Origin: Escherichia coli
GTDB lineage: Bacteria; Pseudomonadota; Gammaproteobacteria; Enterobacterales; Enterobacteriaceae
Assembly (NCBI RefSeq): GCF_051903065.1
Contig: NZ_CP178441.1
Strand: one strand, 5' to 3'
Length of the DNA stretch: 42,047 nt
Part shown: one piece after another, positions 5,823-30,417 of the stretch
Position numbering within the stretch: the first letter of the stretch is position 1
Layout of the letters: every line of letters starts with the position of its first letter
The notes under the pieces: model-generated
The model's input: the letters and a program-made list of their open reading frames with translations, nothing else
What the model was told of the DNA's origin: nothing
The model's database searches: none
Program-made: the position numbers and the translations under genes

Positions 5823-5843
5823 CGAATAGCGTAGGAGTCCCGG

Positions 5844-13816: not shown

Positions 13817-14346
13817 AAAAAATGACCCGCTATGCCGCCATTGGTGTTATTTCGGCTTCATTGATTGGTGCAGTTGTGTGTTGCTTTGGATATGCCGCCG
13901 GGTTACGCATCAATACCACGAAAAGTATCCCTGTTGGCTTGTACAAAATCAGCCAGAAAGCGCCAGAGAAGGGCGACTATGTAATTTTCTGCCCGCCTGA
14001 AAAGGCTATTTTCTCACTGGCACAGAAGCGTGGTTACATCGGCAGCGGCTTTTGTCCAGGGGGGTATGGCGAGATGATGAAGCGGATTTTAGCGGCTAAA
14101 GGTGATGAAGTTGCTTTTCGTGATGATGGTGTTTACGTCAACGGACAGTTATTGCCTTACAGCAAGCCGTTAAGTGTTGATCCGGGCGGGCGTAAACTGC
14201 CCGCCATTCGTGAAGTATACACGTTGGGTAAATCAGAACTGTTGCTGATGACTGACCGCAGCGCATCTTCATTTGACGGGAGATATTTCGGCGCGGTCAC
14301 AAAGTCACAGATTATTTCTACGATATTACCTGTAATGACCTGGTAA
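13813..14346 (+). CDS. traF: TraF pilin-maturation peptidase (signal peptidase-like)
   Basis: Signal peptide and S26-like motif SFDGRYFG. Synteny after traG. Confidence 0.75.
   Translation: MKKMTRYAAIGVISASLIGAVVCCFGYAAGLRINTTKSIPVGLYKISQKAPEKGDYVIFCPPEKAIFSLAQKRGYIGSGFCPGGYGEMMKRILAAKGDEVAFRDDGVYVNGQLLPYSKPLSVDPGGRKLPAIREVYTLGKSELLLMTDRSASSFDGRYFGAVTKSQIISTILPVMTW
14088..14100. promoter_or_regulatory. KorB-type operator TTTAGCGGCTAAA inside the traF coding sequence
   Basis: Perfect OB consensus located within the CDS (encodes RILAAKG). Confidence 0.55.
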
Positions 14347-14365
14347 AAAGAATAGGGGAATTGAT

Positions 14366-14695
14366 ATGGGGTTATTTCATAAGAGTGCGGAGAAGGAGAA
14401 GTTAGAGGCACTGGAAAAGGTTATTTCAAAAACCAATCGTGGCATTTTTAAACGAATTGATGAAAATCGCGAGCTACTCGAATTGTTATATGAAAAAGCA
14501 CCAGAGCTTATGGATAAATGTTTCTGGATTCGATGCTGGATTGAATCTCAGGATGAATTTTTAAGTAAGTTGGCAGAGATTTCTGGCGTGGAAAATCGAA
14601 CCTATAACCTTACTCCTGATAAACCTTATCCACGTCCTTTTCCGAAAAAACCAGATTGCCTTATGGATTCTTCGAATGAGGATAATGCCGTATGA
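14366..14695 (+). CDS. hypothetical protein (109 aa), inserted between traF and the topoisomerase gene
   Basis: Good RBS (AGGGGA) before the ATG. AT-rich codon usage unlike the flanking transfer genes. Confidence 0.5.
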   Translation: MGLFHKSAEKEKLEALEKVISKTNRGIFKRIDENRELLELLYEKAPELMDKCFWIRCWIESQDEFLSKLAEISGVENRTYNLTPDKPYPRPFPKKPDCLMDSSNEDNAV

Positions 14696-14874
14696 ATACT
14701 CTCATTATGTATGCTTTGAAAACTATTCGTTATCGCAGCCTCATTGCTGAGGCACTTTTGGGTAATTTATCAAAGTGTGAAGATACAAAAAGGCGAAGTG
14801 AAATCATCACGGTTTGTCATCGCTCCGCTGATGTCCTGATAGTGAAGAAATTAAAGTGCTTATGGCAGAAATAG
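14692..14874 (+). CDS. hypothetical small basic protein (60 aa), translationally coupled to the upstream ORF
   Basis: ATGA start/stop overlap with 14366..14695. Confidence 0.45.
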   Translation: MNTLIMYALKTIRYRSLIAEALLGNLSKCEDTKRRSEIITVCHRSADVLIVKKLKCLWQK

Positions 14875-14884
14875 GGAGTGTCAA

Positions 14885-16915
14885 ATGAGAGTATTCATTG
14901 CAGAAAAACCAAGTGTTGCGAAAGCCATCGCTGAAATATTAGGCGCAACCAATAAAAAAGACGGTTACATTGAGTGCGGCAGTGACTATGTGACCTGGTG
15001 TTTTGGTCATATGTTTGAGCAGGCTGAACCTGATGAATATACACCAGACAATGTGCCTCGTAATGAAAGCGGTAAAAAAATCTGGCGAGAAGATGAACTG
15101 CCAATTATCCCCGAAAAATGGATTATTAATCCTCGTGAAGATGCTGAGAAACAGCTGAAAACCATCCGGCATTTGGTTGAGCGAGCTGACACGATTGTAA
15201 ATGCTGGCGATCCAGATCGCGAGGGGCAGTTACTGGTTGATGAAATCCTTGATGACATGGGATGTACTAAACCGGTTCTGCGTTACTGGTGTAATGCGAA
15301 TGATACGGTAAGTGTCACAAGGGCGTTGAAAGGACTTGAGAACAACGATAAATATGTAAATTTTGGACGTGCAGCTCTTGCGCGTGGTCGGGCTGATTGG
15401 TTGGTTGGAATGAACCTTTCAAGAGGATTCACGTTGTCGGCAGCGCGTGGTGGCTCGCGTGTTCTGTTGACGGTCGGGCGAGTTCAGACACCAACGCTGG
15501 CACTTGTTGTTGCCCGCGATCTCGAAATTGAAAACTTCAAACCAATTCCTTATCACAATATTAAAGCTGTCTTTAAACATGACAAAGGAGCGTTTGTTGC
15601 GGCATGGCAGGCCAGAGAAGATCAGCCAGGGCTTGATTCAGAGGGAAGGCTTATTGACACTAAAGAAGCTGATAAGCTAGTAGCGGCTTTAACCGGAAAA
15701 TCCGGTAAGGTTGTTGAATATAAGCAAGAGCCAAAGAAAAAATATCATCCAAAAGCCTATTCTCTTGGCAGTATCACCGCTGTTGCTTCAAGTAAGTTTG
15801 GTTATTCTGGTGAGCAAGTGCTGGCTATATGCCAGTCTCTTTATGAAACGCATAAACTTACCAGTTATCCACGTTCTGATAGTTCTTATTTGCCTGAATC
15901 TCAACACGCAGATGCACCTCAAATTCTGGATTCTCTTCGGGTTACTTATCCGGGAATAGCTGCTCTAATCGATAAGGCTGATCCAAAAGTAAAATCAAAA
16001 ACTTTTGATGACTCTAAGGTTACAGCGCATCACGGCATTATCCCAACGATGCACAAAGGTAACGTTGAAAGGCTTACGCCAGAAGAGCGTAATATTTACG
16101 ACCTTATCGTAAGAACATACCTTGCTCAATTTTATCCAGTACATGAATATAAAGCGACATCAATTATTATTGATGTTAATGGTGAAACATTTGGGGCCGG
16201 TGGCCGCGTAACGACTAAAAATGGATGGAAGGATGTTTATTCAGATGGAGAGGATGAAGAAGAAAAAGAAAATGAGTCTGAACAGACTCTTCCATCAATG
16301 AGAAATGGTGACGAAATTATTTGTGCTCAGGCACAGCGGCAGGATGCTAAAACTAAAGCTCCGCGTCGTTTTAATGACGGTACACTCAACACTGCAATGG
16401 AAAATATTCATAAGTATGTTGAAGACCCGGCTCAGAAAAAATTACTGCGGGAAGGTGATGGTATTGGCACATCAGCTACCCGCGCCACAATAGTTGCTGA
16501 TTTAAAGAAACGTGGTTTTATTGAAAACAAAGGCAAAGACATTATCAGTACCAAGCTGGGAAGGGGGCTGATAGCCATTCTGCCAGAACTGGTTAAAAGC
16601 CCGGTAATGACAGCCATCAACGAACGTATGTTACTGGAAATAGAGCAGGGGAAACGTGACGTTGATTCTTTTGTGAAGATTCAGGAAAAATTTGTACGAG
16701 AGCAGATTAAGGTTATTAATGCCGGAGCTATCAAAGTTGCCGGTGGTGTGCAAATTTCTGACAAGTACAAATGCAAGGTATGTGGTAAAGGACTTATTCG
16801 TCGTCCGTCCAAAAAATCCGGTCACTTCTGGTCTTGCAGTGGTTATCCCAATTGTAAAGAGTCGTACCCAGATATTAAAGGTAGTCCAAACTATAACCCC
16901 ATAAAACGCGCTTAA
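14885..16915 (+). CDS. traE: DNA topoisomerase III (TraE-like)
   Basis: Toprim N-terminus MRVFIAEKPSVAKAIA, topoisomerase IA core, and a C-terminal zinc ribbon (CKVCGK...CSGYPNC). RP4 TraE is a topoisomerase III homolog. Confidence 0.85.
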   Translation: MRVFIAEKPSVAKAIAEILGATNKKDGYIECGSDYVTWCFGHMFEQAEPDEYTPDNVPRNESGKKIWREDELPIIPEKWIINPREDAEKQLKTIRHLVERADTIVNAGDPDREGQLLVDEILDDMGCTKPVLRYWCNANDTVSVTRALKGLENNDKYVNFGRAALARGRADWLVGMNLSRGFTLSAARGGSRVLLTVGRVQTPTLALVVARDLEIENFKPIPYHNIKAVFKHDKGAFVAAWQAREDQPGLDSEGRLIDTKEADKLVAALTGKSGKVVEYKQEPKKKYHPKAYSLGSITAVASSKFGYSGEQVLAICQSLYETHKLTSYPRSDSSYLPESQHADAPQILDSLRVTYPGIAALIDKADPKVKSKTFDDSKVTAHHGIIPTMHKGNVERLTPEERNIYDLIVRTYLAQFYPVHEYKATSIIIDVNGETFGAGGRVTTKNGWKDVYSDGEDEEEKENESEQTLPSMRNGDEIICAQAQRQDAKTKAPRRFNDGTLNTAMENIHKYVEDPAQKKLLREGDGIGTSATRATIVADLKKRGFIENKGKDIISTKLGRGLIAILPELVKSPVMTAINERMLLEIEQGKRDVDSFVKIQEKFVREQIKVINAGAIKVAGGVQISDKYKCKVCGKGLIRRPSKKSGHFWSCSGYPNCKESYPDIKGSPNYNPIKRA

Positions 16916-16930
16916 TTGTAGAGGCACTAT

Positions 16931-17116
16931 ATGACTGATACTAATGCAGTAATTCGCCCTGATGTTAACGACGCAATACAGGAAAAATATCGCGATCTGA
17001 TGACACCGGGATATGTAGTCGAATTTTCACCCGATGAGGCTGATCTTGTGGGGGCATTCGAAGATGATGCGCTGAATGTACGTGACGCATACGAAAGCGC
17101 TTTTGATGCGGAGTAA
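16931..17116 (+). CDS. small strongly acidic protein (61 aa)
   Basis: RBS GAGG before the ATG. Very high Asp/Glu content. Lies immediately upstream of the ArdC-like gene. Confidence 0.45.
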   Translation: MTDTNAVIRPDVNDAIQEKYRDLMTPGYVVEFSPDEADLVGAFEDDALNVRDAYESAFDAE

Positions 17117-17121
17117 GGGCC

Positions 17122-19239
17122 ATGGCAGAAGCTAAAGCGAAAAAACCATTTTATGAGATTGTGGCTGAAAACCTGATAGCCCAGCTTAAAGAGGGGACTG
17201 CTCCATGGCAGAAACCATGGAACCCCGGCGCTCCTGGTGTCGCATTGCCTATGAACCCTACGACGGGTAAACGTTATAAAGGCATTAACGCTATTCACCT
17301 TATGGCGCAGGGTTATAGCGATCAACGTTGGATGACCTATAAGCAGGCGACGGCTGCAAATGCGCAGGTAAGGAGAGGCGAAAAAGGCACGCCGATCCAA
17401 TACTGGAAATTTACTGAGGAACGCATCAAACGCAACGATGATGGTAGCGTTGTGCTCGATAAAGACGATAAACCGGTAAAAGAAACTGTCCAACTGGAGC
17501 GACCGAAGGTATTTAACGCAGTTGTGTTTAATGCGGAGCAGATTGACGGTCTACCGCCGATGGCCGTTCGCCAAGATAAGAGCTGGAACAGTATTGAACG
17601 TGCTGAATCTATTCTCGAAGCCTCTGGCGCGAAAATCTCTCATGACCAGGTTGACCGGGCTTTTTACCGTATGTCTACAGACAGCATTCATTTGCCGCAG
17701 CAGGCTTCCTTTCCAAGTGCTGATCGTTACTATGCCACTGCACTTCATGAATTGAGCCACTGGACAGGTCACGCATCGCGTCTTGATCGTGACCTGTCTC
17801 ATCCTTTTGGAAGTGAAGGTTACGCCAGAGAAGAACTACGCGCAGAGATTGCCAGTATGATCATTGGCGATGAACTGGGGATAGGTCATGACCCTTCCCA
17901 GCATGTTGCCTATGTAAAATCTTGGATTAAAGCCTTACAGGATGATCCGCTGGAAATTTTCCGTGCAGCAGCTGATGCTGAAAAAATCCAGGGGTTCGTG
18001 TTGGGCCTTGAACAACAGAGAATACAGGAACAACCGGTAACTCTGGAAAGAGAGCAGCGCGAAAAAGAGCATAATGAGGTAATGGCTGAGGTACAGCGGC
18101 TGACTAACCCGCAGATTTTCGATGCGGAAACAGCTCAACTCTATCATTTCACATTCATGACACTGGAGCAGACAGCTGAGGAAGCTGGTTACGTTACCTA
18201 TTACAGCCGTGGCACTGGTGAGCTGGGCGAAGAAACTATTCGGGTTAATTACGAAGACAGTAATGGAAATACTATTCCTGTTCATACTGATGTGGTTGGG
18301 CGCGGAAAAGCATTGACATATATCGGTGATGAGCGTGTCCCCGGAACGGGATTTTCATCCGATAATGAATGGCAAAGCAATGCTCTTAAAACCGCTTTCG
18401 CCAGCATGGATAACAACCTAACTTTAGTCGCTAAAAAAGTTCATAGTCAGATTGAAAATATCAGTGGAGACCCGCGAGAGTTACCGCAGGATGTTAAGTT
18501 TCCTAAAAACTGGTGGCCTAATTCCAGTTTTCTGGCGTCGACCCCAAGTGTGGAGAACTCAAAAGCAGCTGCAGAGGCTGATATGACCACTAAAACTGAA
18601 ACGTCTATTACATCAGCGCAGCAGCGCCAGTATCGTGCAGAGAAATTTATTCTTTCGAATCTCGATAGTGGTCTTTCTAAGCACGTTCAGAATATGAACC
18701 GTCGCCAGCTTACGTTGTCACGAAACGTTCTCTATGATGCTCAAAATAGCAATCAGGATAGTGATTTTTGGCAGCGTAACAAGGAATTTCATTCTTCGTT
18801 CAGTCAAAACTGGAATGAGGCTCAGGACAAGATCAAGAGCGCATACCGTGAGATTGATTTTGCATTATCACTTCTACCAGAGCCGAAATATAACATTGTG
18901 GAAAATCCTGGTCAGAATGAGCATGTGAATATAATCATGCAGACCAACAGTGCAGTTAAGGCGCTGGCCGCTGTTAACGAAGGGGATAATCGTTCAATTT
19001 ATGACTCACGTCTCATCAATAACGGTAAGGTCGATCTGAATGACCTGCAGAACAATTTTTATCAAACACTTGAAGCAGAAAAAGCAGCCTTAAAGCAAGG
19101 TATTATCAAGCCTGATGATGAGATTAGCGTGCTCCCACCAAGAGAAGCACAGGAATGGTATCAAGACCGTGTTGAAGGCTTGACGTATAGGAAATTGAAA
19201 AACCAGTCGATACCATTGTCCACGCCTTATGCCACGTGA
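17122..19239 (+). CDS. ardC: ArdC-like antirestriction protein (N-terminal ssDNA-binding domain plus HExxH metalloprotease) with a roughly 400-aa C-terminal extension
   Basis: N-terminal ...APWQKPW... ArdC-type segment and HExxH motif ALHELSHWTGH. Total length 705 aa versus about 300 aa for canonical ArdC. Confidence 0.7.
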   Translation: MAEAKAKKPFYEIVAENLIAQLKEGTAPWQKPWNPGAPGVALPMNPTTGKRYKGINAIHLMAQGYSDQRWMTYKQATAANAQVRRGEKGTPIQYWKFTEERIKRNDDGSVVLDKDDKPVKETVQLERPKVFNAVVFNAEQIDGLPPMAVRQDKSWNSIERAESILEASGAKISHDQVDRAFYRMSTDSIHLPQQASFPSADRYYATALHELSHWTGHASRLDRDLSHPFGSEGYAREELRAEIASMIIGDELGIGHDPSQHVAYVKSWIKALQDDPLEIFRAAADAEKIQGFVLGLEQQRIQEQPVTLEREQREKEHNEVMAEVQRLTNPQIFDAETAQLYHFTFMTLEQTAEEAGYVTYYSRGTGELGEETIRVNYEDSNGNTIPVHTDVVGRGKALTYIGDERVPGTGFSSDNEWQSNALKTAFASMDNNLTLVAKKVHSQIENISGDPRELPQDVKFPKNWWPNSSFLASTPSVENSKAAAEADMTTKTETSITSAQQRQYRAEKFILSNLDSGLSKHVQNMNRRQLTLSRNVLYDAQNSNQDSDFWQRNKEFHSSFSQNWNEAQDKIKSAYREIDFALSLLPEPKYNIVENPGQNEHVNIIMQTNSAVKALAAVNEGDNRSIYDSRLINNGKVDLNDLQNNFYQTLEAEKAALKQGIIKPDDEISVLPPREAQEWYQDRVEGLTYRKLKNQSIPLSTPYAT

Positions 19240-19503
19240 GCCTTTCTGCTTTTCCCACCACTCCGGTGGTTTCCCTCTCTGTATGGTCGATTTTTATACC
19301 GTAACAGGCTGTTTTTTATACTTTCACCGATTCCCGGGCACACTTAGCCTGTGTCAGGCCGGCATATACCTCAGTAGACTGATATCCCGCGCGTTTTTCT
19401 TCAGCCCTGATACATTCAGCCCCGCAATGGCCCGGCGGTATACCATCCGGCAGCCACACAGCACGCATTCGAACGGGTCACGACTCAGGAACTGTTTCAC
19501 CAT

Positions 19504-21291
19504 TTGTGCATAGCACACTTTCGCCACTGGTTCATGGAGGACGCTGACAGCCCGGATGAACTGAAAAGCGCTCTGGATGCGCTTGGCCCAGAACCGGGAG
19601 ATAATGAGGCTGTTTTCCTTGGTGAAGATGGAGGGCGAATTCTTCCAGAATTCAGTCTGAACGTTACGCAGGAAAATACTCCAATCAATGTCCCCTACAA
19701 AGAACGCAATGAAGCTAAAGCGCTTGGGGCAAAATGGGATCGAACCGAACAGACCTGGTTTGTACCAAAAGGTGTATCTCTGGATAAATTTGCAAAATGG
19801 GTTGGTGGGCCAACTGCAGAAAACAATTCATCTGTCGTATCTGTGAAAGAAGTAACGCCAAAAGTGGGTGAGCGTCAGAATCTGGCTGTCCCTTATAAAG
19901 ACCGCGCAGAAGCTAAAGCAGCTGGTGCTAAATGGGACAAAGAGAAAAAAACTTGGTATGCCGAAGCTGGGGCAGATATGCAAAAACTGGCGAAGTGGAA
20001 ACCGGAAAATGTGGTGATCGAACAGTCACCGGCCATGACGCTAAAGGAGGAAGTAGAAACCGCGCTGAAAGATATTGGGTGCATCCTTGATGCCGATACT
20101 GACAAAGGACAGAAACATCCAATTATGGATGGTAAGAAGCATCGGATCACGGTAGAGGGAGACAAGAAAGGGGAAAAGTCAGGTTTTTATATCATCTATA
20201 CTGACGGCCATCCTGCGGGCTTCATGCAGAACAACCGCACCAAAGAAGAGTTACGTTGGTCTTCCAAGGGAAATGTGATGTCCGACGAAGAAAAAGCGCT
20301 CCTGCGGGCGCAGGCTGCTCAGAAACAGGCCGAAAAAGCGGCACAGCAGCAAAAAGACCATGAGTCCTCTGCAAAGCGTGTTCAAAAGCAGCTCGCTAAA
20401 CTCAATGAACCTCAGCAGCAAACTGCTTACCTGAAGAAGAAAGGGCTGCAGGTACATAAAGGTGTGTTCACTGATAAGGACGGACAGAAAACCTTTATTC
20501 CTGCTTATGATGTCCATGGTAAGCAATGGACTATGCAGTACATCAACGAGGACGGCACAAAACGTTTTGCCAAAAATGCTCGCAAAGAGGGATGTTTCCA
20601 TGTCATTGGCGGGCTGGATGCGCTTAAAAAATCTCCGGTGTTGATTGTGGCCGAAGGTTACGCAACGGCAGGGAGCATCACAGAGGCTACTAATATACCA
20701 ACGGTCGCCGCCTTCGATTCAGGTAATCTGGAATCTGTCGCGAAAACGCTTAAAGAAGCCTACCCCGATAAGCCAATCATCATTGCCGGTGATGATGATA
20801 TTTCTCAGTCATGCAAAATGAAGGTGAAGGATAAAGCCAGTGTAAACGTCGGCAGGGAAAAAGCGCTGGAAACAGCGAAAGCTGTCGGCGGTGTGGCTGT
20901 GTTTCCAGTTTTTGCTAAAGGTGAATTACCTGGGAAAGACGAACTCAGCCAGATTAAACCGGCGGCGTATCTTGCACACCAGACCGCCTCGCGCAAACTG
21001 GAGGCCCATACGAGCGGTGATAAGCCACTCTCGGATGCCGAAGTGAAGGTTCTGCAGGCAGCACAGCTATCGGAAAAGCAGCTTGATATTATTCGCCGCG
21101 CTGATCGTTACACTGACTTTAACGATCTGGCCGTAAATAGTTCTCTTGGCCGGGAAGGTGTGGCGATGCAGTTGAAAGCCGTCATTGCTGACCAGCTGAA
21201 TAAAAAACAGCAGCAGTCACAGGTCCAGATCGAAGAGAAGAAACTCGTTCAGGAAAAAGAGAAAAAACGGACCATTCGCCACGCTATGTAA
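19504..21291 (+). CDS. traC: TraC-like DNA primase (Toprim domain); start uncertain (alternative ATG at 19534)
   Basis: Toprim segment VLIVAEGYATAGS...IIIAGDDD. Two N-terminal repeats of the ...AK..GAKWD...K.W motif. Confidence 0.75.
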   Translation: MCIAHFRHWFMEDADSPDELKSALDALGPEPGDNEAVFLGEDGGRILPEFSLNVTQENTPINVPYKERNEAKALGAKWDRTEQTWFVPKGVSLDKFAKWVGGPTAENNSSVVSVKEVTPKVGERQNLAVPYKDRAEAKAAGAKWDKEKKTWYAEAGADMQKLAKWKPENVVIEQSPAMTLKEEVETALKDIGCILDADTDKGQKHPIMDGKKHRITVEGDKKGEKSGFYIIYTDGHPAGFMQNNRTKEELRWSSKGNVMSDEEKALLRAQAAQKQAEKAAQQQKDHESSAKRVQKQLAKLNEPQQQTAYLKKKGLQVHKGVFTDKDGQKTFIPAYDVHGKQWTMQYINEDGTKRFAKNARKEGCFHVIGGLDALKKSPVLIVAEGYATAGSITEATNIPTVAAFDSGNLESVAKTLKEAYPDKPIIIAGDDDISQSCKMKVKDKASVNVGREKALETAKAVGGVAVFPVFAKGELPGKDELSQIKPAAYLAHQTASRKLEAHTSGDKPLSDAEVKVLQAAQLSEKQLDIIRRADRYTDFNDLAVNSSLGREGVAMQLKAVIADQLNKKQQQSQVQIEEKKLVQEKEKKRTIRHAM

Positions 21292-21386
21292 GATGTTCTG
21301 ACTCTGGCCTGCCTGCGGGCCAGTAAATTGCGCTCGCTTTAATGGTAAAATTAAATGCATCAAAAGATTACTTTTAAGGACAGAAA

Positions 21387-21878: not shown

Positions 21879-22090
21879 GTCATTCAGATAAAAGGTCCGA
21901 GTTTTTGTATATGTTCCGGCGTTGCAGAACGATAGATACAGTTGAACGCCTTTATGAACATAAGCGGGACATTGTTTCTTCTGAACATCTTAGCGATTTT
22001 CTGAGTGCTTATGATCATCGCAAGGCAGAAATTTATCATGGAAAAATCTGGGATAAGGTTCCTGCGTCTGCCTGGCGGAATGTGAAATAA
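21875..22090 (+). CDS. hypothetical protein (71 aa), coupled to the upstream secreted protein gene
   Basis: GTGA start/stop overlap. Followed by a strong hairpin terminator. Confidence 0.4.
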   Translation: MSHSDKRSEFLYMFRRCRTIDTVERLYEHKRDIVSSEHLSDFLSAYDHRKAEIYHGKIWDKVPASAWRNVK

Positions 22091-22120
22091 AACAGCCGGG
22101 TAAACCCCGGCTGTTGTTAA
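22091..22120. terminator. bidirectional terminator hairpin (AACAGCCGGG-TAAAC-CCCGGCTGTT) between convergent operons
   Basis: 10-bp perfect stem with T-rich and A-rich flanks. Confidence 0.65.
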
Positions 22121-22122
22121 TT

Positions 22123-22135
22123 TTTAGCGGCTAAA
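22123..22135. promoter_or_regulatory. KorB-type operator TTTAGCGGCTAAA
   Basis: Perfect OB consensus between convergent genes. Confidence 0.55.
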
Positions 22136-22146
22136 ATAAATGAACG

Positions 22147-23133
22147 TTAATCATCATGGTCCAAAGGAGCTGAGTTTTTAATAGCTTCAATTTCATCAAG
22201 CAATCTTTTATTACGCTTTATTGCATCTTCAATGCGACGAATCAGCGCCTCATCACCTTTCCAGTAATTAAATTTACCTCTTTGACTTTTATCCCAAATA
22301 TCCTCCCACCACATGCTTTCATTTACACGATAATCCTTGAGAAGCATCAGTGGATAGGCTTGTTCCTCTTCTCTGATTTGCTTATAAGCAGATCGCGGCA
22401 TAAGGTAGCCTTTGACGTTTACATCAAGTTTGACAAAACTCTTGTACAGCGCCCGAAGAGTGACAAAAAAATCAGCCAAATCAGACTCGCCACCGGCTCC
22501 AATGACTTCACTTACGTGTAGGTTTGTCCAGAACGCATCAACATACCGTGTATTTTCAAACTCACGGAGTATCAGAAGTGCTCCTATATCACTATCTTCC
22601 CTTAGCAGCCTGATGTCTGTGACTTTATTACCATCACTATCAGGTCTGAGAAGGTGCTTAACAGCAGCCCGGCCTGTGCCGTGCATTCTGACGCCTGAGT
22701 TCCATTCATACACATCCCCCTCACCGTGAATTAACCAGTCGGCGCGACAACCAAATAACTTGCTTAACCGCTGCAGCTCAGTGAAGGAAGGGAGTACGTC
22801 ACCACTGAACCAGTTGGCGACAAGGCCAAGATCTTCAATCCCCAGCTCTACGGCCACATTGGACGGCACAAGAGGTTTGTAGTTACGGAATTGGTTGGTT
22901 TTCCGCAGAACTGTATTGAGGCGGCCAGACACTTCCTGCCGGTATAGTTCTTCTCCAGAATAAACCTGCTCAGGAGGTGCTATCCATTTCAACAGAGCAT
23001 AGCGGGCCTCACCTTCGACCGAACGTTGATTTTCGTTTGCTAACTGTTCTAGGGCGAAATATGCATCGTCCGGGAAATTTCTGACCTGAAATTTTTTCAT
23101 AACGCACCATTTTGGGAGAATGTGTGGCTTCAT
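22147..23133 (-). CDS. RHH (Arc/CopG-like) plus XRE-HTH-like protein with a large unknown C-terminal domain; start may be the internal ATG at 23100
   Basis: N-terminus KKFQVRNFPDDAYFALEQLANENQRSVEGEARYAL is RHH-like. A mid segment ...LQRLSKLFGCRADWLIHGEG is HTH-like. Downstream of a KorC-operator promoter region. Confidence 0.55.
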   Translation of the reverse strand: MKPHILPKWCVMKKFQVRNFPDDAYFALEQLANENQRSVEGEARYALLKWIAPPEQVYSGEELYRQEVSGRLNTVLRKTNQFRNYKPLVPSNVAVELGIEDLGLVANWFSGDVLPSFTELQRLSKLFGCRADWLIHGEGDVYEWNSGVRMHGTGRAAVKHLLRPDSDGNKVTDIRLLREDSDIGALLILREFENTRYVDAFWTNLHVSEVIGAGGESDLADFFVTLRALYKSFVKLDVNVKGYLMPRSAYKQIREEEQAYPLMLLKDYRVNESMWWEDIWDKSQRGKFNYWKGDEALIRRIEDAIKRNKRLLDEIEAIKNSAPLDHDD

Positions 23134-23207
23134 AATGAGGGCGGTTTGTCTTCATTGAAAGTTTCAAATTAATTCTATATGTATCTATTTGTTTTCAATA
23201 AGATCTA

Positions 23208-23414
23208 TTAAAAACCAATAAGTCTGCATTCATGGCTGACCATTTGGCTCAGGTAACGTGGTATCTGCTCGACCAAGTGGATGTTCGTCTCAGCGAGTTT
23301 TTCAATCTCATCAATGGTAACGGTTGGCAGAGCATGGATGAAATCTGACAGGGAAAGATGCTCCAGTGGCCGTCTGTCATATGATGCTGTTTTGCTATAG
23401 GATATACGGGACAT
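23208..23414 (-). CDS. small hypothetical protein (68 aa), first gene downstream of the KorC operators
   Basis: AAGGAA RBS upstream of the ATG. Confidence 0.5.
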   Translation of the reverse strand: MSRISYSKTASYDRRPLEHLSLSDFIHALPTVTIDEIEKLAETNIHLVEQIPRYLSQMVSHECRLIGF

Positions 23415-23445
23415 TTCAAATTCCTTGCACGGATTTTAGGTGTCG

Positions 23446-23471
23446 GATAGGGAGGTTGCAGCCTCCCTATC
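23446..23471. repeat. perfect 10-bp inverted repeat GATAGGGAGG-N6-CCTCCCTATC
   Basis: Read directly. Lies in the divergent intergenic region next to the KorC-type operators. Confidence 0.6.
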
Positions 23472-23481
23472 ATCCTTTGTA

Positions 23482-23524
23482 TAGGACATTATGTCCTGCA
23501 CCTATGATAGGACATTTTGTCCTA
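23482..23524. promoter_or_regulatory. two KorC-type operators (TAGGACATTATGTCCTG at 23482..23498; TAGGACATTTTGTCCTA at 23508..23524) in a divergent promoter region
   Basis: Same 17-bp palindrome family as at 1255..1271 and 41307..41323. Confidence 0.6.
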
Positions 23525-23567
23525 TTTGCAAGTGATTTTCAAACCGTCTAAGGATTGGGAGTGCGCC

Positions 23568-23678
23568 GTGCTATATATGTTAATCTGCAGTGTTCTGATG
23601 CTGGCACTGGTAAATGGCAAAAGTAAAGATTTGACTAAAGGCATTGATAAGCTGCAGGATGAATTTAAAGATAAATAG
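23568..23678 (+). CDS. possible small hydrophobic peptide (about 36 aa, GTG start)
   Basis: Short ORF with GGGA RBS and a hydrophobic N-terminus (LICSVLMLALV). Below the ORF-track size cutoff. Confidence 0.3.
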   Translation: MLYMLICSVLMLALVNGKSKDLTKGIDKLQDEFKDK

Positions 23679-23692
23679 AAGGAAGAGAATTA

Positions 23693-23890
23693 ATGGAAAT
23701 TTTCTTGAAGCCGCTGGGTATGGGGGCAGTGGCTGTATTTATCGGGATTGTTTTGCTCTGGCTTATTCCTGAATATAAAAAGACGCCCAGGAAAGCGGCT
23801 GTAGCTGTAATTAATATCGGAGTAGCTCTCATGCTCGCGGTGGCAGTAGGAATGATTGCAGTGATGATGATGACGCCAGCAGGAACCTGA
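23693..23890 (+). CDS. small membrane protein (65 aa, two predicted TM helices)
   Basis: AGGAAG RBS. Almost entirely hydrophobic sequence. Confidence 0.5.
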   Translation: MEIFLKPLGMGAVAVFIGIVLLWLIPEYKKTPRKAAVAVINIGVALMLAVAVGMIAVMMMTPAGT

Positions 23891-23898
23891 GAAAACTC

Positions 23899-23911
23899 TT
23901 TAGCGGCTAAA
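23899..23911. promoter_or_regulatory. KorB-type operator TTTAGCGGCTAAA
   Basis: Perfect OB consensus 9 nt after the 23693..23890 stop. Confidence 0.55.
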
Positions 23912-24060
23912 ATCGTAGCCGCTGATTTTACGAAATTTTCTTTTTCTTGGCGTAAATCGCATAGCAAATGACAGTAATCACAGCCCAGCAAATAATAAAA
24001 GGGTAGCTCTAAAAGAAGCCAAAGGGGAAATATAAAAAATAAGAGCAAATATTTTCATGT

Positions 24061-24948
24061 TTAACCCTCACCGTAAAGTAAACGTATTTGTTTGATAACG
24101 TTAGCCGCATCACCATTAACAAGTTTATGAAATTCTACAGCCATATCCTTTAGCTCGCTATCTTTCAGCAGCAGCTGCAGTCTCCCTAAGAAAAGTGACC
24201 ATGGTTTTTCGCTATCCATACGGCGGCCAAGGCGGGTATACGTACCGGCGTGGCATTTAGATTCTTCACCATTATGTACTGCGTTCATGAGCCTCACCAG
24301 TGCAATGAAAGTATCCCAATCATGGCGGGTATCAAATTGCGCGGTTTCACAGGTAAACGCCAGAACAGGAGGGCGGTTATCCTCCGGTGTATCGAAGGAA
24401 TTACTGTCATTTCCCCGGACAATAATCGTAAAGGTCTTGTTCCCAACCGTAAACGAATAATCGACGGATTGGATGCCTACCGGCGCGTGTTCGGTTGCAA
24501 ACGTCCTTCTGGATTCTTCATCACGAATATAGAAGCGATGTGCAAAGCCGAACAGATCCTGATAATAGTTAAGACTGCTTTCTATTAGGGTATTATCGAT
24601 GCGGTCACGTATTGCAAAGTAATCAGGGCCAGCCAAATGTTTGCTATCCAGTTGCTTCCTGGCCGCATCTGTCAAAAAAGCTATTTCAGCGGGAGTCAGA
24701 TCAGCAGGTTCATTTGTATTCCAAGGATCGCAAATTTTGTGATGAAGCCTTGAAAGCGTTTTGACCGGTTCAGCTACAAGCCGTGTAAGTTCATTCTGTG
24801 TTCCGTCATTAGCAATATTGTTTAGTGAGTTCTCTATCAGGTTAACCAGGAAAGCGTTAACTGACAGGTTACTTGCTTTTGCATAGGTTTTGATGCGCTC
24901 GACTTGCTCTCGCGACGTTCGCAATGAAATCTGTGTTAACTCCATCAT
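24061..24948 (-). CDS. RHH-domain protein with large unknown C-terminal domain, apparent paralog of 22147..23133 (ORF track start 25008)
   Basis: N-terminus ISLRTSREQVERIKTYAKASNLSVNAFLVNLIENSL is RHH-like. AGGAG RBS before the ATG at 24948. C-terminal region shows loose similarity to that of the 22147..23133 product. Confidence 0.55.
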   Translation of the reverse strand: MMELTQISLRTSREQVERIKTYAKASNLSVNAFLVNLIENSLNNIANDGTQNELTRLVAEPVKTLSRLHHKICDPWNTNEPADLTPAEIAFLTDAARKQLDSKHLAGPDYFAIRDRIDNTLIESSLNYYQDLFGFAHRFYIRDEESRRTFATEHAPVGIQSVDYSFTVGNKTFTIIVRGNDSNSFDTPEDNRPPVLAFTCETAQFDTRHDWDTFIALVRLMNAVHNGEESKCHAGTYTRLGRRMDSEKPWSLFLGRLQLLLKDSELKDMAVEFHKLVNGDAANVIKQIRLLYGEG

Positions 24949-24958
24949 TTCACTCCTA

Positions 24959-24985
24959 TTGAATGATTTATCATTGAATGATGCT
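24959..24985. promoter_or_regulatory. candidate operator: AATGAT-TT-ATCATT palindrome plus a third AATGAT direct copy, upstream of the RHH gene
   Basis: Repeats read directly in the leader of 24061..24948. RHH regulators commonly autoregulate through such repeats. Confidence 0.35.
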
Positions 24986-25175
24986 ACCACATCTAAAAGT
25001 GATGTCATTTCATTTTTATCACATTAATGGCTTTTTTAAGTTGCCTTGATTGACCTAGCCAGTTTAAGCTGTATTTGCAGTAAAAAAGCCATACACTTAA
25101 CGAGTGGGCTTTTAGGGTATACCTTAATTAACTAGCCTACGCATTTACTTTAAAGGCACTTGAGAAGGAGATTAA

Positions 25176-25541
25176 ATGAATTTTATTGCTTTATGGCCTT
25201 TATTGCTGGCCCAAGTGACAGTGATGTCACTGACAGTGATTTTTCTTGCTGCTGACAGGCGTTTTTTTTCATGGGACTGTTTTGTTGTTTGCACTCTGTC
25301 CATGATGATGGCAGAAGGTATTGTTATTATGAAATATGAACTGTGGCATATCCCTCCTGCCCTGCTGGGTCTGGCAGGAGGGTTGTCATGGTCGCTGCTG
25401 CTACTCCATACAGGATATTTCTCAGGCATATCAGAAGGAGCGCATAAGCGTTTGTGGCTCGCTGTCGCCGCAGTGTTTTCTGGTGCGGGAATGATTATAT
25501 TCTACTGGTTGCTCCATGCATCAGAAAACATAATTAAATAA
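25176..25541 (+). CDS. small integral membrane protein (4 predicted TM helices)
   Basis: GGAG RBS. Hydrophobic throughout. Confidence 0.5.
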   Translation: MNFIALWPLLLAQVTVMSLTVIFLAADRRFFSWDCFVVCTLSMMMAEGIVIMKYELWHIPPALLGLAGGLSWSLLLLHTGYFSGISEGAHKRLWLAVAAVFSGAGMIIFYWLLHASENIIK

Positions 25542-25624
25542 CGAATGGATAATGCGAGAAAGAGACATAACCAGAGAATATTGATAGATGATTGCGTGAT
25601 TGATTTGCTGGGGTATTTTATTAT

Positions 25625-26239
25625 ATGAAAATAGCGCGAATATATTTGCGGGTTAGTACAGACGAACAAGATTTAACCCGGCAAAATGAAATTATTGAAA
25701 ATGCCAGGAATAATGGATTCTATGTTGCCGGTATCTATAAAGAAAAGGCGTCCGGTGCAAGAGCTGACCGCCCGGAACTGCAACGTATGATTGATGATCT
25801 GCAGCTAGACGAAGTAGTTATTGCAGAACATATAGATCGTATCAGTCGTTTACCGCTCGATAGTGCGTTAGCGTTAATAAACTCTATAAAAGAGCGGGGA
25901 GCGAAGCTCGCCATTCCCGGTATTGTGGATCTTACCGAACTGGCAAACGCTCAATCCGGTGTCGCGAAGGTCGTTCTGGAATCTGTTCAGGATATGTTAC
26001 TCAAAGTTGCCCTACAGTTGGCAAGGGATGAGTATGAAAACCGTCGTAAACGCCAGAAAGAGGGTATTGAGCTGGCTAAACGGCAAGGCCGGTATCAGGG
26101 GCGAACTGCAAATCTACGGCTCCATAAACGCATCATTGAGTATCGTTCAAGGAAGACGAGTATTGCGGAAACAGCGAAACTTTGTGAATGTAGCGTTAGT
26201 CTTGTAAAAGCTGTATGGTCTAAACATAAAAATAAGTAA
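25625..26239 (+). CDS. serine recombinase (resolvase/invertase family)
   Basis: Catalytic N-terminal motif YLRVSTDEQDLTRQ and a C-terminal HTH. Typical length of about 200 aa. Confidence 0.85.
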   Translation: MKIARIYLRVSTDEQDLTRQNEIIENARNNGFYVAGIYKEKASGARADRPELQRMIDDLQLDEVVIAEHIDRISRLPLDSALALINSIKERGAKLAIPGIVDLTELANAQSGVAKVVLESVQDMLLKVALQLARDEYENRRKRQKEGIELAKRQGRYQGRTANLRLHKRIIEYRSRKTSIAETAKLCECSVSLVKAVWSKHKNK

Positions 26240-26270
26240 TTAAATTTAAATAATATAAGGTAGAGATTAA

Positions 26271-26639
26271 ATGAGCAAAGAAATTAGAGCGGAAAGAATC
26301 AAGAATGTAATTCTGGAAAACTCGACTTATGAAGAACTGGCCGAGAAGACTGGCATTAGCGTGAGTACGCTGGTCAGGATAGCGTCCGGTAAAACTGAAC
26401 CTAAGTTCAGTGATATTATTAAAATTGCGATGGTGACAGGCGTTGATTTAAATGAATTGGCACATGGAGATATTGTTAATATAAAGGAAGATGCAATGCT
26501 AAAAAATGATAAGCAAAATGACGAAGTTGTTAAGGCTCATAATTTCATCGTCTGGAATATATCCAGTTTAGATAAAAAAGATATATTATCTATATCAAGA
26601 ATAGTTTACGCACTTTCGACTTTGAAAAAAAAGCCCTAA
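26271..26639 (+). CDS. XRE-family HTH transcriptional regulator
   Basis: HTH segment YEELAEKTGISVSTLVRIASGKTEP. AT-rich codon usage. Confidence 0.6.
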   Translation: MSKEIRAERIKNVILENSTYEELAEKTGISVSTLVRIASGKTEPKFSDIIKIAMVTGVDLNELAHGDIVNIKEDAMLKNDKQNDEVVKAHNFIVWNISSLDKKDILSISRIVYALSTLKKKP

Positions 26640-26803
26640 TTATTTAATAATGCATAACAAACGTATAAATGTTTTGGTTTCTAACTTCTTTTATTAAAGG
26701 GTGAGGAATGGTCCCTCCCCGCCCTTAATACGCCAGAACAAAGCAAAAAAGAGGCATAACGACACGACCAGCATTAGCATGTTTTAGACGCTAGACGCAA
26801 AAA

Positions 26804-27577
26804 TCAACGTAGTTTGATATTTCCATATACTGCAGCCAGTGCATCAGCTGCAGCCTTGTTATAACGACCCGGTAGTTGCTGTGTGGGCTGCTGATAGTCA
26901 GCTTTTACGACGCTTTCAACCGGTATTTGTTTTACAGAAGCGGAAAAACCAATAAGTTGATTCGGTGTAGTCGGTGTTACTGTTGTTCCGTCATTTTTGG
27001 GCGGTTCTGTAGCGAGTGTGTCGCTTTGTGCAAGGTTAGTAACCAGTGTAATGTTTTTCCCTGCTCTTTCTTCTGGCGTAACTCCAACCGTCGCCTGTTG
27101 AGGCTGTGGAGTAGTCGTTCCTGCAGGTTTCGTTGTGTCAAACGTATTAAAGCGAGCTTCAATCCAGGTCTGCCATTTAGCTGCTTTTCTGATCAGGTCA
27201 GCACGATATACCTTGTTAAATTGAGGCGTTTTTGAATGATAATTTGCTGCTTTTGTCCAGATATCTCCCTTATCATTTTTGATATGGCCGCGTATACGCC
27301 ACGCAGCCAAATCATACGAATAACAGCCTGGCTGTGCTACATCTTCTTCTGTAATGCCGTATTTTTCCAGATCCTTTAAATAAACCGTATTAAACTGCAT
27401 ACGGCCTATATCATATGTGCCGTTTGAGTTACGGTTTTTATTCTCAAGTCCGGGACGACCACCCTCTTTTTCAGCTATGGCTAACATGATGTTAGCCGGA
27501 ACCTGATATTTTATCGCTGCAGTAATTGAGCAAACTACACGTTCAACCTGAGCCGGTGGAATATCTAAATACGGCAT
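26804..27577 (-). CDS. trbN: TrbN / VirB1-like lytic transglycosylase
   Basis: SLT-domain character (…AEKEGG…, …YDIGRMQFN…). Last gene of the trb operon. Confidence 0.7.
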   Translation of the reverse strand: MPYLDIPPAQVERVVCSITAAIKYQVPANIMLAIAEKEGGRPGLENKNRNSNGTYDIGRMQFNTVYLKDLEKYGITEEDVAQPGCYSYDLAAWRIRGHIKNDKGDIWTKAANYHSKTPQFNKVYRADLIRKAAKWQTWIEARFNTFDTTKPAGTTTPQPQQATVGVTPEERAGKNITLVTNLAQSDTLATEPPKNDGTTVTPTTPNQLIGFSASVKQIPVESVVKADYQQPTQQLPGRYNKAAADALAAVYGNIKLR

Positions 27578-27592
27578 ATTATTTCCCTTTTG

Positions 27593-27901
27593 TCAAAAAA
27601 AGCGTAGACGACCAAATTTATTCTGTATTTTATCTACGTAAGCAGGTGAAGCTGATGGGCAATTATTAGTTAGCCATCCTCTTCTTTTTTTCTCTGTTCG
27701 ACTTGCGCTGAATTTTCCATGCTTGAAGCTGATTTGACTGAAATAGTTGTTCACACTCCCCGAACAACCATCCTGGACACTACCTGTGGCAACCAATCCC
27801 CACATGCATAATACGGGTTGGCATGGATCTGCCGCCTTTGTTGGAATGCTGTAAATACTAATAGATAATGCCATCAATGTAACTGATAGATATTTTTTCA
27901 T
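27593..27901 (-). CDS. small secreted Cys-containing protein in the trbM position (ORF track start 27955)
   Basis: Signal peptide MKKYLSVTLMALSISIYSIPTKA from an internal ATG with GAGG RBS. Lies between trbL and trbN. Confidence 0.5.
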   Translation of the reverse strand: MKKYLSVTLMALSISIYSIPTKAADPCQPVLCMWGLVATGSVQDGCSGSVNNYFSQISFKHGKFSASRTEKKRRGWLTNNCPSASPAYVDKIQNKFGRLRFF

Positions 27902-27911
27902 ATTAATAGCC

Positions 27912-29456
27912 TCAGAACTTTGACTTGTTTTTAAATTGTTCGTATTCATCACCACTTTGTGATGTTTGTGTATCTATAGAACCAGTATTTTCTGTTTGAG
28001 TCGTTGTTTGCTCCTCCCCTCCAAGACTGTCGCCGTTGAACTTGTTACTTGTTGTTATGCTCCCGTAGCCAAAAGATTCTTCTGTGTTGTTCGATTGACG
28101 TTCAACAGTTTGCGAACGGATTTGAGAAGCGAGCTTTCCACCTGGAGTTTGTGCAATGATGTCTCTTGCCGCTCTGACTTTTGAGTCATGCTTGGCTGCA
28201 TTGCGTGCAGCCAGGCCGTTAGCCAAACTATTCGCCATATGCGAAGCCATGCGGCCAGCTCGTGAGAATGATGAAGCAAAGCCCTGGCTTCCTCCACTGG
28301 AACTACCTGTACTGTTCTCTGCAGACGAACCACCGGAACCGCCTGATGGTTGTCCTCCAGAAGTATCTACAGAACCGGTATCCTCCCCACTTCCAAATCC
28401 TCCACCTGAACCGCCTTTACTACCAGTACTAGACTCTTCGGCCATCGCTGCTTGTGCCGATTCAAATGCCGCTTTAAGTGCTGATGCACCTCCGGCAGCA
28501 TTTGCAGCACCTGCTGCCGCAGCAGCGCCAGATGCTGCTATTGCGGCTCCTGCTGCAGCAGCAGCCCCAATAATTGCACCGGCACCAAAGCCACCAATGC
28601 CTTGCATTGAAGCACCGCCTACAATACTGCCAACCATAGGAGGAACTTTATTAACAAGAACCAAAAGAACAATTGAGGCTACAAGCATTACAAACATAGA
28701 TTTCATTTGTACTGCGTCATCGCCCATTGCCTGGTAATACTGGTCTATGAAGGATTTTCCAATACCAACAATTAGAACCATTGTGAACAGCTGCAGGGCA
28801 ATTCCTAGAACTGTTTTGAAGTATGTAATGGCAATATCGGAAGTCCAACGAGCCCCCCCAAAACCGAGTAAGAAAATACCGCCGTAACTTAAAATCCAGC
28901 CGGTAATCAGCAGAAGAAGCATATTCACACCGACAAGTGCTAATACGCATAGAATAACTCCGGCTAAAATCAAGCCGACAGTGGAGTCTGCCGGGGACCA
29001 AATAGAAGACTGGTCAACGACTCTTGATACGATATCAAACCCTATATCTACAATGCCCGAAGGCGAGAATGATTTTGATAAACCAGAAGCATTAGCCGCG
29101 AGTTGACGTAATGAATCCTGAATATCTACCGATATTGCCGGGCCGTTTTTTAGCAGATAGAAGAAAAAACCTAACACAGCAAAAAAACGAACTACTTCCG
29201 CAAGAGCTGCCGATAATCCTTCGCCCTGCATTGCCATCATTGCGAATGTCCATACCATTGAAATTACCGCTAATGACCAAAATATCCAGGTCGCGTAATT
29301 TTGTATGGTTCCAGCCCAGGTGCTGGCAACATTTGCAAAGCGCTTAAGGATATCATCAAGTAACCCAGCACTATCTAATGGCGCAGCCTGTGCCTGTGTG
29401 CTGATTAATATCAGCAACACAGATAAGCAAGGATAAATTAGATGCCTGAATTTCAT
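27912..29456 (-). CDS. trbL: TrbL / VirB6-like polytopic inner-membrane protein with Gly/Ser-rich C-terminal tail (ORF track start 29507)
   Basis: Signal peptide from MKFRHLIYPC, multiple TM helices, and a low-complexity G/S/A-rich C-terminus. Confidence 0.7.
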   Translation of the reverse strand: MKFRHLIYPCLSVLLILISTQAQAAPLDSAGLLDDILKRFANVASTWAGTIQNYATWIFWSLAVISMVWTFAMMAMQGEGLSAALAEVVRFFAVLGFFFYLLKNGPAISVDIQDSLRQLAANASGLSKSFSPSGIVDIGFDIVSRVVDQSSIWSPADSTVGLILAGVILCVLALVGVNMLLLLITGWILSYGGIFLLGFGGARWTSDIAITYFKTVLGIALQLFTMVLIVGIGKSFIDQYYQAMGDDAVQMKSMFVMLVASIVLLVLVNKVPPMVGSIVGGASMQGIGGFGAGAIIGAAAAAGAAIAASGAAAAAGAANAAGGASALKAAFESAQAAMAEESSTGSKGGSGGGFGSGEDTGSVDTSGGQPSGGSGGSSAENSTGSSSGGSQGFASSFSRAGRMASHMANSLANGLAARNAAKHDSKVRAARDIIAQTPGGKLASQIRSQTVERQSNNTEESFGYGSITTSNKFNGDSLGGEEQTTTQTENTGSIDTQTSQSGDEYEQFKNKSKF

Positions 29457-29460
29457 TCTG

Positions 29461-29634
29461 TCACCATTTCTTTTCGGGGCTTTTTGTAAATTCGCCTGAT
29501 TTACCACATTGCGTTTTTTCCTGGTCAGTCATCTTTGATACTGACTTATTGCAATCAACCTGGTTGGGATCGGTTTTTGGGTCGCAAGCAGTGATAAAAA
29601 ACGCCGACAGAATGAGAGGAATGATATATTTCAT
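29461..29634 (-). CDS. trbK: TrbK-like entry-exclusion lipoprotein (57 aa; not in the ORF track because under 60 aa)
   Basis: Manual translation gives MKYIIPLILSAFFITAC... with a lipobox-like signal. Position between trbJ and trbL as in RP4. Confidence 0.55.
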   Translation of the reverse strand: MKYIIPLILSAFFITACDPKTDPNQVDCNKSVSKMTDQEKTQCGKSGEFTKSPEKKW

Positions 29635-29646
29635 AGGAGTACCACC

Positions 29647-30417
29647 TTACCAAGATTGAGCGGGGCTTTTGGTATAAGTCCCTGCCCTAAAAGTTTCTGA
29701 TGCAGCCGCTTGCTGGGCCTCTTTATCGGCCTGAGCCTGCGCCAGTGTAGTTGCAGCGTTTTGCTGGGCAACTAGAAGCGAGCGGATTTGCAGTAACTGG
29801 TTTGTTTGCGCACTGGCAAGCTGGTTAGCGGCCTGAATAGCTTCCATTTGCCCCTGTGCTCCAGTTACTTGAGTTTGTAAGTCAGCAAGGTTATCTGCAT
29901 CTCTTTGCAGTGTTTCTTGCTGTTCATCGAGAACCTTAAAAACGGCGTCATTGGCCTTTTTACGAGCCTCAGAGTTATTTTGTTCAGCTTTACGTAGTGC
30001 GCTAATTTCATCTGCAGTGCATTCAACATTACTGTTAAAGCATGGCGATGAACGGTAGTAATTAATGTCCTGATAACGTTTTAGATATGAGTCAAGACTC
30101 CCGGCCTGATTTTTGTAGTAATTAAGAGTGTCCTGTGCCTGCAATAATTTGTTGATAGTTGAATTGGCCTGATCCCATATATAGGCCGCAGGTGCGACTG
30201 TGTTTCTCAGCATGTTTTCATATTGTTGCAACTGCGTCTGATACTGTTGGATCTGTTTAGCCACAGCCTGAACGTTATTGACAGCGCTGATTGTGGTCTG
30301 CACCACATTAGTAGCATCAAAAACAGGAATACCAGCTTTCGCAGGTAGGGCCATGATTGACGCCACGAAGGAAGCTAGTAACGCTTTTTTAGCGGCTAAA
30401 ACGAAACGTGTATTCAT
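29647..30417 (-). CDS. trbJ: TrbJ / VirB5-like protein
   Basis: Signal peptide and a Q/A-rich coiled-coil body. Synteny. Confidence 0.7.
   Translation of the reverse strand: MNTRFVLAAKKALLASFVASIMALPAKAGIPVFDATNVVQTTISAVNNVQAVAKQIQQYQTQLQQYENMLRNTVAPAAYIWDQANSTINKLLQAQDTLNYYKNQAGSLDSYLKRYQDINYYRSSPCFNSNVECTADEISALRKAEQNNSEARKKANDAVFKVLDEQQETLQRDADNLADLQTQVTGAQGQMEAIQAANQLASAQTNQLLQIRSLLVAQQNAATTLAQAQADKEAQQAAASETFRAGTYTKSPAQSW
30388..30400. promoter_or_regulatory. KorB-type operator TTTAGCGGCTAAA inside the 5' end of trbJ
   Basis: Perfect OB consensus 15-29 nt downstream of the trbJ start codon. Confidence 0.55.

Follow-up and report, generated by a model that had tools for sequence, protein, structure and literature searches.

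The closest described relatives of the elements considered here are the promoter-distal operators of KorB (OB) on the IncP-1 plasmids RK2/RP4 and R751, which follow a 13-bp palindromic consensus, TTTAGC(G/C)GCTAAA. Class III operators are those with no promoter within ~1 kb, and we take the promoter-distal OB to be the ones assigned to this class by Kostelidou & Thomas 2000. KorB acts as a sliding clamp dependent on CTP and, once locked by KorA, represses from an OB 1.5 kb away (PMC11790492), and TrbA likewise locks KorB from an OB 1.6 kb away (bioRxiv 10.64898/2026.05.27.728120). Here, we analyse a 42,047-nt stretch of Escherichia coli DNA (NCBI RefSeq assembly GCF_051903065.1, contig NZ_CP178441.1; hereafter the window), in which matches to OB lie inside the transfer genes traF and trbJ and as a tandem pair after traM. 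We show that selection on the traF and trbJ sites acts on the DNA and not on the encoded peptide, and we weigh the roles that such sites might play.

The window is a complete circular plasmid with a GC content of ~45%, belonging to IncP/P-1 "clade II". It aligns end to end, circularly permuted and at 99.98-100% identity, with the Salmonella enterica plasmid pCFSA664-2 (NZ_CP033354.2). Hayakawa et al. list pCFSA664-2 in clade II, a group of low GC found only in Enterobacteriaceae and without kfrA, whose members carry mcr-1, mcr-3, blaKPC and blaIMP in these hosts (PMC9499019). Perfect copies of TTTAGCSGCTAAA occur eight times in the 42-kb window, against 0.00 expected from 100 shuffles. Leaving the centre base free adds three further operators (1232, 2661 and 9044, with T or A at the centre), and allowing mismatches brings in three decayed copies (18423 with one mismatch, 6667 and 26783 with two each).

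The operator inside traF (13813-14346, plus strand) is a perfect TTTAGCGGCTAAA at 14088..14100, nt 276-288 of the gene; it begins on the third base of codon 92 and reaches codon 96. It is read ATT-TTA-GCG-GCT-AAA (I-L-A-A-K) within the signal-peptidase motif KR-ILAAK-GD. The same perfect sequence, TTTAGCGGCTAAA, lies at 30388..30400 in trbJ (29647-30417, minus strand, ATG at 30417-30415), where it is read GTT-TTA-GCC-GCT-AAA (V-L-A-A-K) and falls within the N-terminal portion of the signal peptide of TrbJ. An earlier, sequence-only reading of this DNA had located both sites, and the pair at 6653..6679, correctly by our motif scan; it had put the trbJ site at 15-29 nt into the gene, a small error for what is nt 18-30.

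Both intragenic operators have counterparts in the reference IncP-1 plasmids. Operators were mapped in R751 (IncP-1beta) and in pBS228, which served as the IncP-1alpha, RK2-type reference: the traF site occupies nt 276-288 in the window and R751 and nt 273-285 in pBS228, and the trbJ site nt 18-30, 15-27 and 24-36 in the window, R751 and pBS228, respectively. Codon alignments of seven lineages of 45-64% GC (the window, pPN150, R751, pBS228, p7ME01, pP9014 and pMNBL056) place both at the same aligned codons throughout. Three more lineages (Pseudomonas pL21564-1, Sphingomonas pBAR1 and a Variovorax plasmid) bring the total for traF to ten, with TraF identity to the window as low as 48%; at 36-41% identity, in Neisseria gonorrhoeae pConj, Photobacterium pWMD-P3-2 and a Vibrio plasmid, the traF operator is absent. 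In the numbering of Pansegrau 1994, we believe, the traF site is OB5 and the trbJ site OB8.

The conservation extends beyond these two genes. Between the traJ stop codon (9040-9042) and the traI start (9071), the window carries a T-centred OB, TTTAGCTGCTAAA, at 9044..9056, and an operator at this junction is shared by R751, pBS228, p7ME01, pP9014, pMNBL056, pPN150, pL21564-1, pBAR1 and N. gonorrhoeae pConj. In all, operators at traF, trbJ, the traJ/traI junction, korAp, trfAp and trbBp are positional orthologues of those in R751 and pBS228. Two further sites survive in decayed form: TTTAGTCGCTAAA at 18423..18435 in traC, with one mismatch and read L-V-A-K, is perfect (L-A-A-K) at the same codons of the sister plasmid pPN150, and TTTAGACGCTAGA at 26783..26795, 9 nt downstream of trbN and with two mismatches, has a perfect counterpart at the corresponding position of pPN150 and pBS228. 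By alignment, the traF, trbJ and traJ/traI sites, together with the decayed traC copy, correspond to the KorB operators that IncP-1 plasmids carry away from promoters. What could be taken for a peculiarity of one sequence is a conserved family feature (ten lineages for traF, seven for trbJ), and the finding is largely ordinary, new only as to this clade.

The proteins that would use these operators are all encoded. The korB gene (3875..4888, plus strand) specifies a ParB-family CTPase with the Pfam domains ParB_N, KorB and KorB_C, 57-63% identical to R751 and RK2-type KorB. Its GxRRxR motif with the R117 equivalent is present, as read from the sequence, and the RK2 KorB positions R117, T211, R240 and F249 are conserved. 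In RK2, R117 is a CTP-binding residue and F249 an interface residue for KorA and TrbA (bioRxiv 10.64898/2026.05.27.728120), and KorB obtains its specificity from contacts by Thr and Arg residues outside the helix-turn-helix (HTH) (PMC5016525). Upstream lie incC, encoding a ParA ATPase (3111..3875, plus strand), and korA (Pfam KORA; 2764..3108, plus strand); trbA, for an HTH regulator with a KorA-like C-terminal domain, is at 38389..38793 on the minus strand. All three protein parts of the clamp-and-lock system are thus encoded, with an aromatic residue at the positions of KorB F249, KorA Y84 and TrbA F104 (F, F and F; Phe replacing RK2 Tyr84 in KorA). With a full KorB, its key residues and positional orthologues in R751 and the RK2-type IncP-1alpha plasmid, the identification of the traF, trbJ and 6653 matches as IncP-1 KorB operators, proposed in the sequence-only reading, holds as a prediction. 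Clade II plasmids keep the whole KorB/KorA/TrbA circuit and its operator map, and results obtained with RK2 should transfer to them.

The codon usage of the intragenic OB shows the DNA to be the object of selection. On both strands, one frame of the palindrome is closed by TAG and a second by TAA; the sole open frame on either strand is T-TTA-GCN-GCT-AAA, that is Leu-Ala-Ala-Lys (LAAK), with the centre base of the operator at the wobble position of an Ala codon. With stops in two of three frames on both strands, an intragenic OB can therefore be present only in this register, imposing LAAK on the protein. Every intragenic OB found uses the LAAK frame: those of traF, trbJ and traC (both kinds of site), as well as those in Neisseria traJ and traE. 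LAAK peptides number just two per backbone proteome, both OB-coded. In R751, TTA makes up 0.2% of Leu codons (P of TTA given Leu = 0.002), and the chance of an xLAAK peptide being OB-coded is ~9e-7 in R751 and 4e-3 in the window plasmid. Across traF, trbJ and traG, 41 of 512 invariant degenerate amino-acid columns use a single codon in all lineages, and seven of these 41 are among the eight OB codons (Fisher P = 1e-7). Where TraF lacks the operator, the variable spacer of the K-R-x5-G-D motif reads VAGIP, IIAME or IVATS. The sites would seem to have been placed where LAAK is tolerated, in the TrbJ signal peptide and in this TraF spacer. The one-frame rule is a tidy case of a DNA-binding site dictating a peptide, and it explains the placement of the intragenic sites.

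A plausible role is offered by the clamp-and-lock mechanism (McLean et al. 2025, PMC11790492; McLean et al. 2026 preprint), with which the window shares all the protein parts, the aromatic interface residues and operators lying kilobases from candidate target promoters. The mechanism was shown for the RK2 proteins only, on reporters with OB no more than 1.5-1.6 kb from the promoter. KorB dimers would load at OB, bind CTP, close as a clamp and slide off, and dispersed OB could in this way keep two long transfer operons, poor in intergenic space, supplied with sliding KorB. TrbA at its operator (OT), or KorA at its own (OA), would capture the clamp and lock it over a promoter; the same bound KorB may also contribute to the IncC/KorB partition complex. 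On balance we favour the reading that the traF and trbJ sites serve as loading sites for KorB-CTP clamps in TrbA- or KorA-locked long-range repression, and possibly in partition. Among the three roles suggested by the sequence-only reading (long-range silencing, centromere-like function and internal promoters), long-range silencing is the best supported, given repression by the KorB clamp at 1.5-1.6 kb (PMC11790492; bioRxiv 10.64898/2026.05.27.728120) and the presence of KorA, TrbA and the aromatic residues. The sliding-clamp model makes the role of promoter-distal operators testable, directly so because synonymous changes can destroy an OB while keeping LAAK.

Candidate targets of such repression would be the oriT promoters, trbBp and a promoter upstream of traG. 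Sites for TrbA were sought with an OT core that we take to be CGATATATCG. A one-mismatch scan gave the decamer CGATATACCG at 11473..11482, inside traI and 400 bp upstream of traG, as a candidate TrbA operator of a traG promoter; the OB that flank it, at 9044 and in traF, are 2.4 and 2.6 kb away, respectively. All eight lineages examined have an OT-like decamer (CGRTATAYCG) within traI, at a distance of 216-400 bp upstream of traG (beside the window, at 49019 in L002, 27766 in L005, 29713 in L006, 12913 in L007 (pP9014), 14554 in L008, 3782 in L009 (pPN150) and 8554 in L011, by our lineage numbers). A one-mismatch OT-like copy likewise lies 53-127 bp upstream of trbB in seven of seven lineages examined; in the window it is CGATATAACG at 38254-38263, with the trbBp operator at 38342..38354. 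The model of a TrbA-bound target upstream of traG is suggestive only.

The N. gonorrhoeae conjugative plasmid (PMC2848598) provides an informative comparison. It has the same 13-bp motif, in six copies. Two of these, one at the 3' end of traJ and one within a gene of Tra1, are read in the LAAK frame, and they flank its equivalent of the traG-upstream site. It differs from the window in that the Tra1-internal OB is in traE and not in traF, and in that trbJ has none. It seems that distal Tra1 requires an operator but not at one fixed place: the need appears to be conserved, the position not.

Several observations weigh against long-range repression from the intragenic sites. From the traF and traJ/traI operators to the nearest OT-like site the distance is 2.4-2.6 kb, more than the 1.5-1.6 kb tested experimentally, and a scan of the window revealed nothing resembling OT or OA near trbJ. 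OT-like matches, found with a short consensus, number three in the window against 0.77 expected, and six of 100 shuffles reach three. With two promoter-distal sites decayed (18423 and 26783), individual promoter-distal OB are therefore dispensable. Around the circle, the perfect sites are not clearly more evenly spaced than random (P = 0.09-0.16); even spacing as a sign of plasmid-wide coverage was accordingly set aside, being marginal with the decayed sites included (coefficient of variation, P = 0.03). Finally, by the title of a 1998 paper by Williams et al., RK2 partition reportedly needs OB3 only, the other sites forming destabilising complexes without OB3.

The alternative that survives best concerns the tandem after traM. 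In the convergent kfrC/traM intergenic region, a motif scan places a perfect OB, TTTAGCCGCTAAA, at 6653..6665, followed after 1 nt by a degenerate copy, CTTAGCGGCTAAT, at 6667..6679, which has its inner 11 bp intact and both of its mismatches at the outermost positions; the two are 14 bp apart centre to centre and end 2 nt before the traM stop codon (6682-6684, minus strand). The degenerate copy might exist for an RNA hairpin, as a traKLM terminator, and not as a second site for KorB. The two palindromes yield a hairpin at 6654..6678 on the minus strand (terminator-like scan; minimum free energy z = -5.0 and -3.3), with an 11-bp perfect stem including five GC pairs and a 3-nt loop; it lies 3 nt past the traM stop codon, at the 3' end of traKLM, and is followed by a tail, AAAAUUUUGUU, that begins with four A. 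The centre bases of the two operators, C and G, are complementary, and both mismatches to the OB consensus fall outside the stem.

Other features make this terminator reading doubtful, if a real possibility. Any two adjacent palindromic operators pair with each other, and a hairpin therefore forms necessarily. A stronger terminator-like hairpin, with a GC-rich stem and U5, lies 40 nt beyond at 6612-6592. In pP9014, two perfect OB with the same 14-bp spacing, plus a further half-site in tandem (L007 27751-27777), stand upstream of trbB, where a terminator would be senseless. The tandem is conserved in the sister clade (pPN150) with a single substitution, which is in the loop and so gives no evidence of covariation. 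On the favoured reading, the tandem hairpin would be a by-product or a second function of the operator pair. For a single OB, the sole possible stem is 5 bp and A/U-rich, probably too weak for any role at the RNA level.

The pair also differs in position from the operators of related plasmids. In seven other lineages an OB lies at the kfrB/kfrC junction, a site that we equate with OB3 of RK2, reported to be sufficient for partition together with incC and korB; the window has no operator between these genes, only a possible remnant, aaTAGCGTAGGAG, at 5822-5844, and the 6653 pair follows kfrC, with no positional orthologue in R751 or pBS228. The pair may take the place of OB3. Homology of the window to the sister clade stops precisely where the perfect OB has its outer edge (6652/6653), and the extra DNA of the sister clade at this boundary, 0.4-1.5 kb, ends in a second OB and an OA-like site. 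The 6643-6653 boundary is an insertion hot spot, with ~0.4, 0.46, 0.8 or 1.1 kb of extra DNA in relatives; in pPN150 (L009 8611-9700) the second operator and OA-like site are at L009 9552-9590. Recombination between two OB was considered as the origin of the window's kfrC-traM arrangement and rejected, the window being also without ~140 bp beyond the sister clade's second OB, so that a single clean event fails.

A purely centromeric role, in which the intragenic OB act only as auxiliary centromeres that recruit KorB for IncC partition and have no effect on transcription, is unlikely. KorB is a ParB homologue encoded beside a ParA, dispersed OB have been described as a cis-acting partition motif in IncP-1beta plasmids (PMC3614916), and our scans found no promoter or co-repressor site near either intragenic operator. 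Against this stand the ability of KorB to repress at a distance from any OB (PMC11790492), and the distribution of the sites, three inside the two transfer operons and none inside replication or stability genes, which points to transfer control. The report on RK2 partition mentioned above, in which one site was enough and others were destabilising without it, also speaks against such a role.

A bolder version of the loading-site reading would make the intragenic OB obligatory clamp-loading stations that wrote LAAK into TraF, TrbJ and TraC and that flank an otherwise operator-less traG promoter from ~2.5 kb on each side, and would make the traM-end pair a combined KorB loading site (a centromere) and terminator where the kfr and traKLM units converge. 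We consider this conjunction quite unlikely; if true, the combined element after traM would couple the site of transcription stop to the site of KorB loading.

KorB within the operons could instead be a roadblock to elongating RNA polymerase, or attenuate it, and so tune the distal genes from traF and from trbJ onward. Most promoter-distal OB do lie at gene boundaries within operons (kfrB/kfrC in other lineages, traJ/traI, trbI/trbJ+18 and trbN/trbO), and zygotic induction of RP4 declines along both operons (PMC7314908, Table). However, CTP-bound KorB slides off OB as a clamp instead of staying in place to block the way (PMC11790492), two of the sites (traF and traC) lie in the middle of genes, and we found no direct evidence for attenuation, which makes this explanation very unlikely.

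It is highly improbable that the operators mark internal promoters repressed directly by KorB, as at korAp. The model for this idea is the arrangement at korAp and trfAp, where OB directly precedes the -35 hexamer. Near the intragenic sites, however, consensus scans gave fewer promoter-like matches within ~1.3 kb of the traF or trbJ OB than in shuffles, none of them adjoining an operator; the sequence just after the trbJ OB varies among lineages, with no conserved -35 or -10 element, and no OA is nearby. This suggestion of the sequence-only reading is unsupported. Weakest of all, the notion that a conserved LAAK peptide gave rise to the sites incidentally, with no selection on DNA, can appeal to the traF site lying within the conserved K-R-x5-G-D signal-peptidase motif, but is ruled out by the codon statistics, the codons (rare TTA included) being invariant over plasmids of 45-64% GC, and is contradicted by the different residues of operator-less TraF and by the lack of LAAK elsewhere in either backbone proteome.

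Taken as a whole, the window agrees with RK2/RP4 and R751 in the identical 13-bp sequence, the traF and trbJ codons and the traJ/traI junction, in the possession of KorB, IncC, KorA and TrbA, and in OB-OA spacing at korAp and trfAp. It differs in belonging to the low-GC, Enterobacteriaceae-restricted clade II, without kfrA (PMC9499019), in having an operator pair after kfrC instead of a kfrB/kfrC operator, in the decay of the traC and trbN-distal sites and in the T or A centre of three sites. Looser parallels exist in other replicons, whose dispersed centromere sites also serve as operators. Chromosomal ParB of Pseudomonas aeruginosa, with its parS and half-parS sites (PMC5961200), likewise uses scattered short palindromes and affects gene expression. 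It differs from KorB/OB in protein and motif, as does SopB of prophage N15, and the likeness is one of analogy only. The N15 protein binds four scattered sites.

The promoter-proximal operators follow the familiar plan. At korAp, an A-centred OB at 2661..2673 precedes TTGACC and OA, GTTTAGCTAAAC, the latter at 2694-2705; in the divergent trfAp/trbAp region, the OB is at 38819..38831 and OA at 38851-38862. OA lies 32-33 bp from OB, centre to centre, at both korAp and trfAp and overlaps a -10 element, an arrangement as in RK2 (PMC2680271). A T-centred OB precedes kleE (1232..1244). T- or A-centred copies are found in the window at 1232, 2661 and 9044 and in Pseudomonas pL21564-1 (L012 19355), the published consensus having G or C only. 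Downstream of korB, an OB at 4959..4971, with an OA-like ATGTAGCTAAAC at 4980-4991, occupies the position of kfrAp with no kfrA following (motif scan and PMC9499019, Table 2). The stretch at 4959-5468 thus has OB and OA-like sites as at kfrAp, then ~480 bp without kfrA and with only short open reading frames of 36-82 aa. The kfrAp-like promoter now probably serves kfrB-kfrC.

Promoter-distal sites not included in the sequence-only reading are those at 9044, 22123 and 23899 and the decayed copies at 18423 and 26783; the traM-end hairpin is a further addition. The perfect operators at 22123..22135 and 23899..23911 belong to the accessory region, each at a convergent gene end, the former directly after a terminator-like hairpin and the latter present in pPN150 too. 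A convergent gene end is also the setting of the 6653 pair. The backbone has the usual IncP-1 order: kle, korA-incC-korB, kfrB-kfrC, traM-L-K, oriT and traJ-I-G-F-E-C, then the accessory genes, trbN to trbB, trbA, ssb-trfA and oriV. The sole difference between the window and pCFSA664-2 is an insertion of 347 bp at 19184-19530, a fragment identical to the end of an IS91-family element, which lies within the primase gene traC and disrupts its reading frame, pCFSA664-2 being without it. Downstream of trfA, at 40395-40542, a 22-bp unit (GACATTTGAGGGGCG...) is present in ~6.7 copies, which presumably represent the iterons of oriV.

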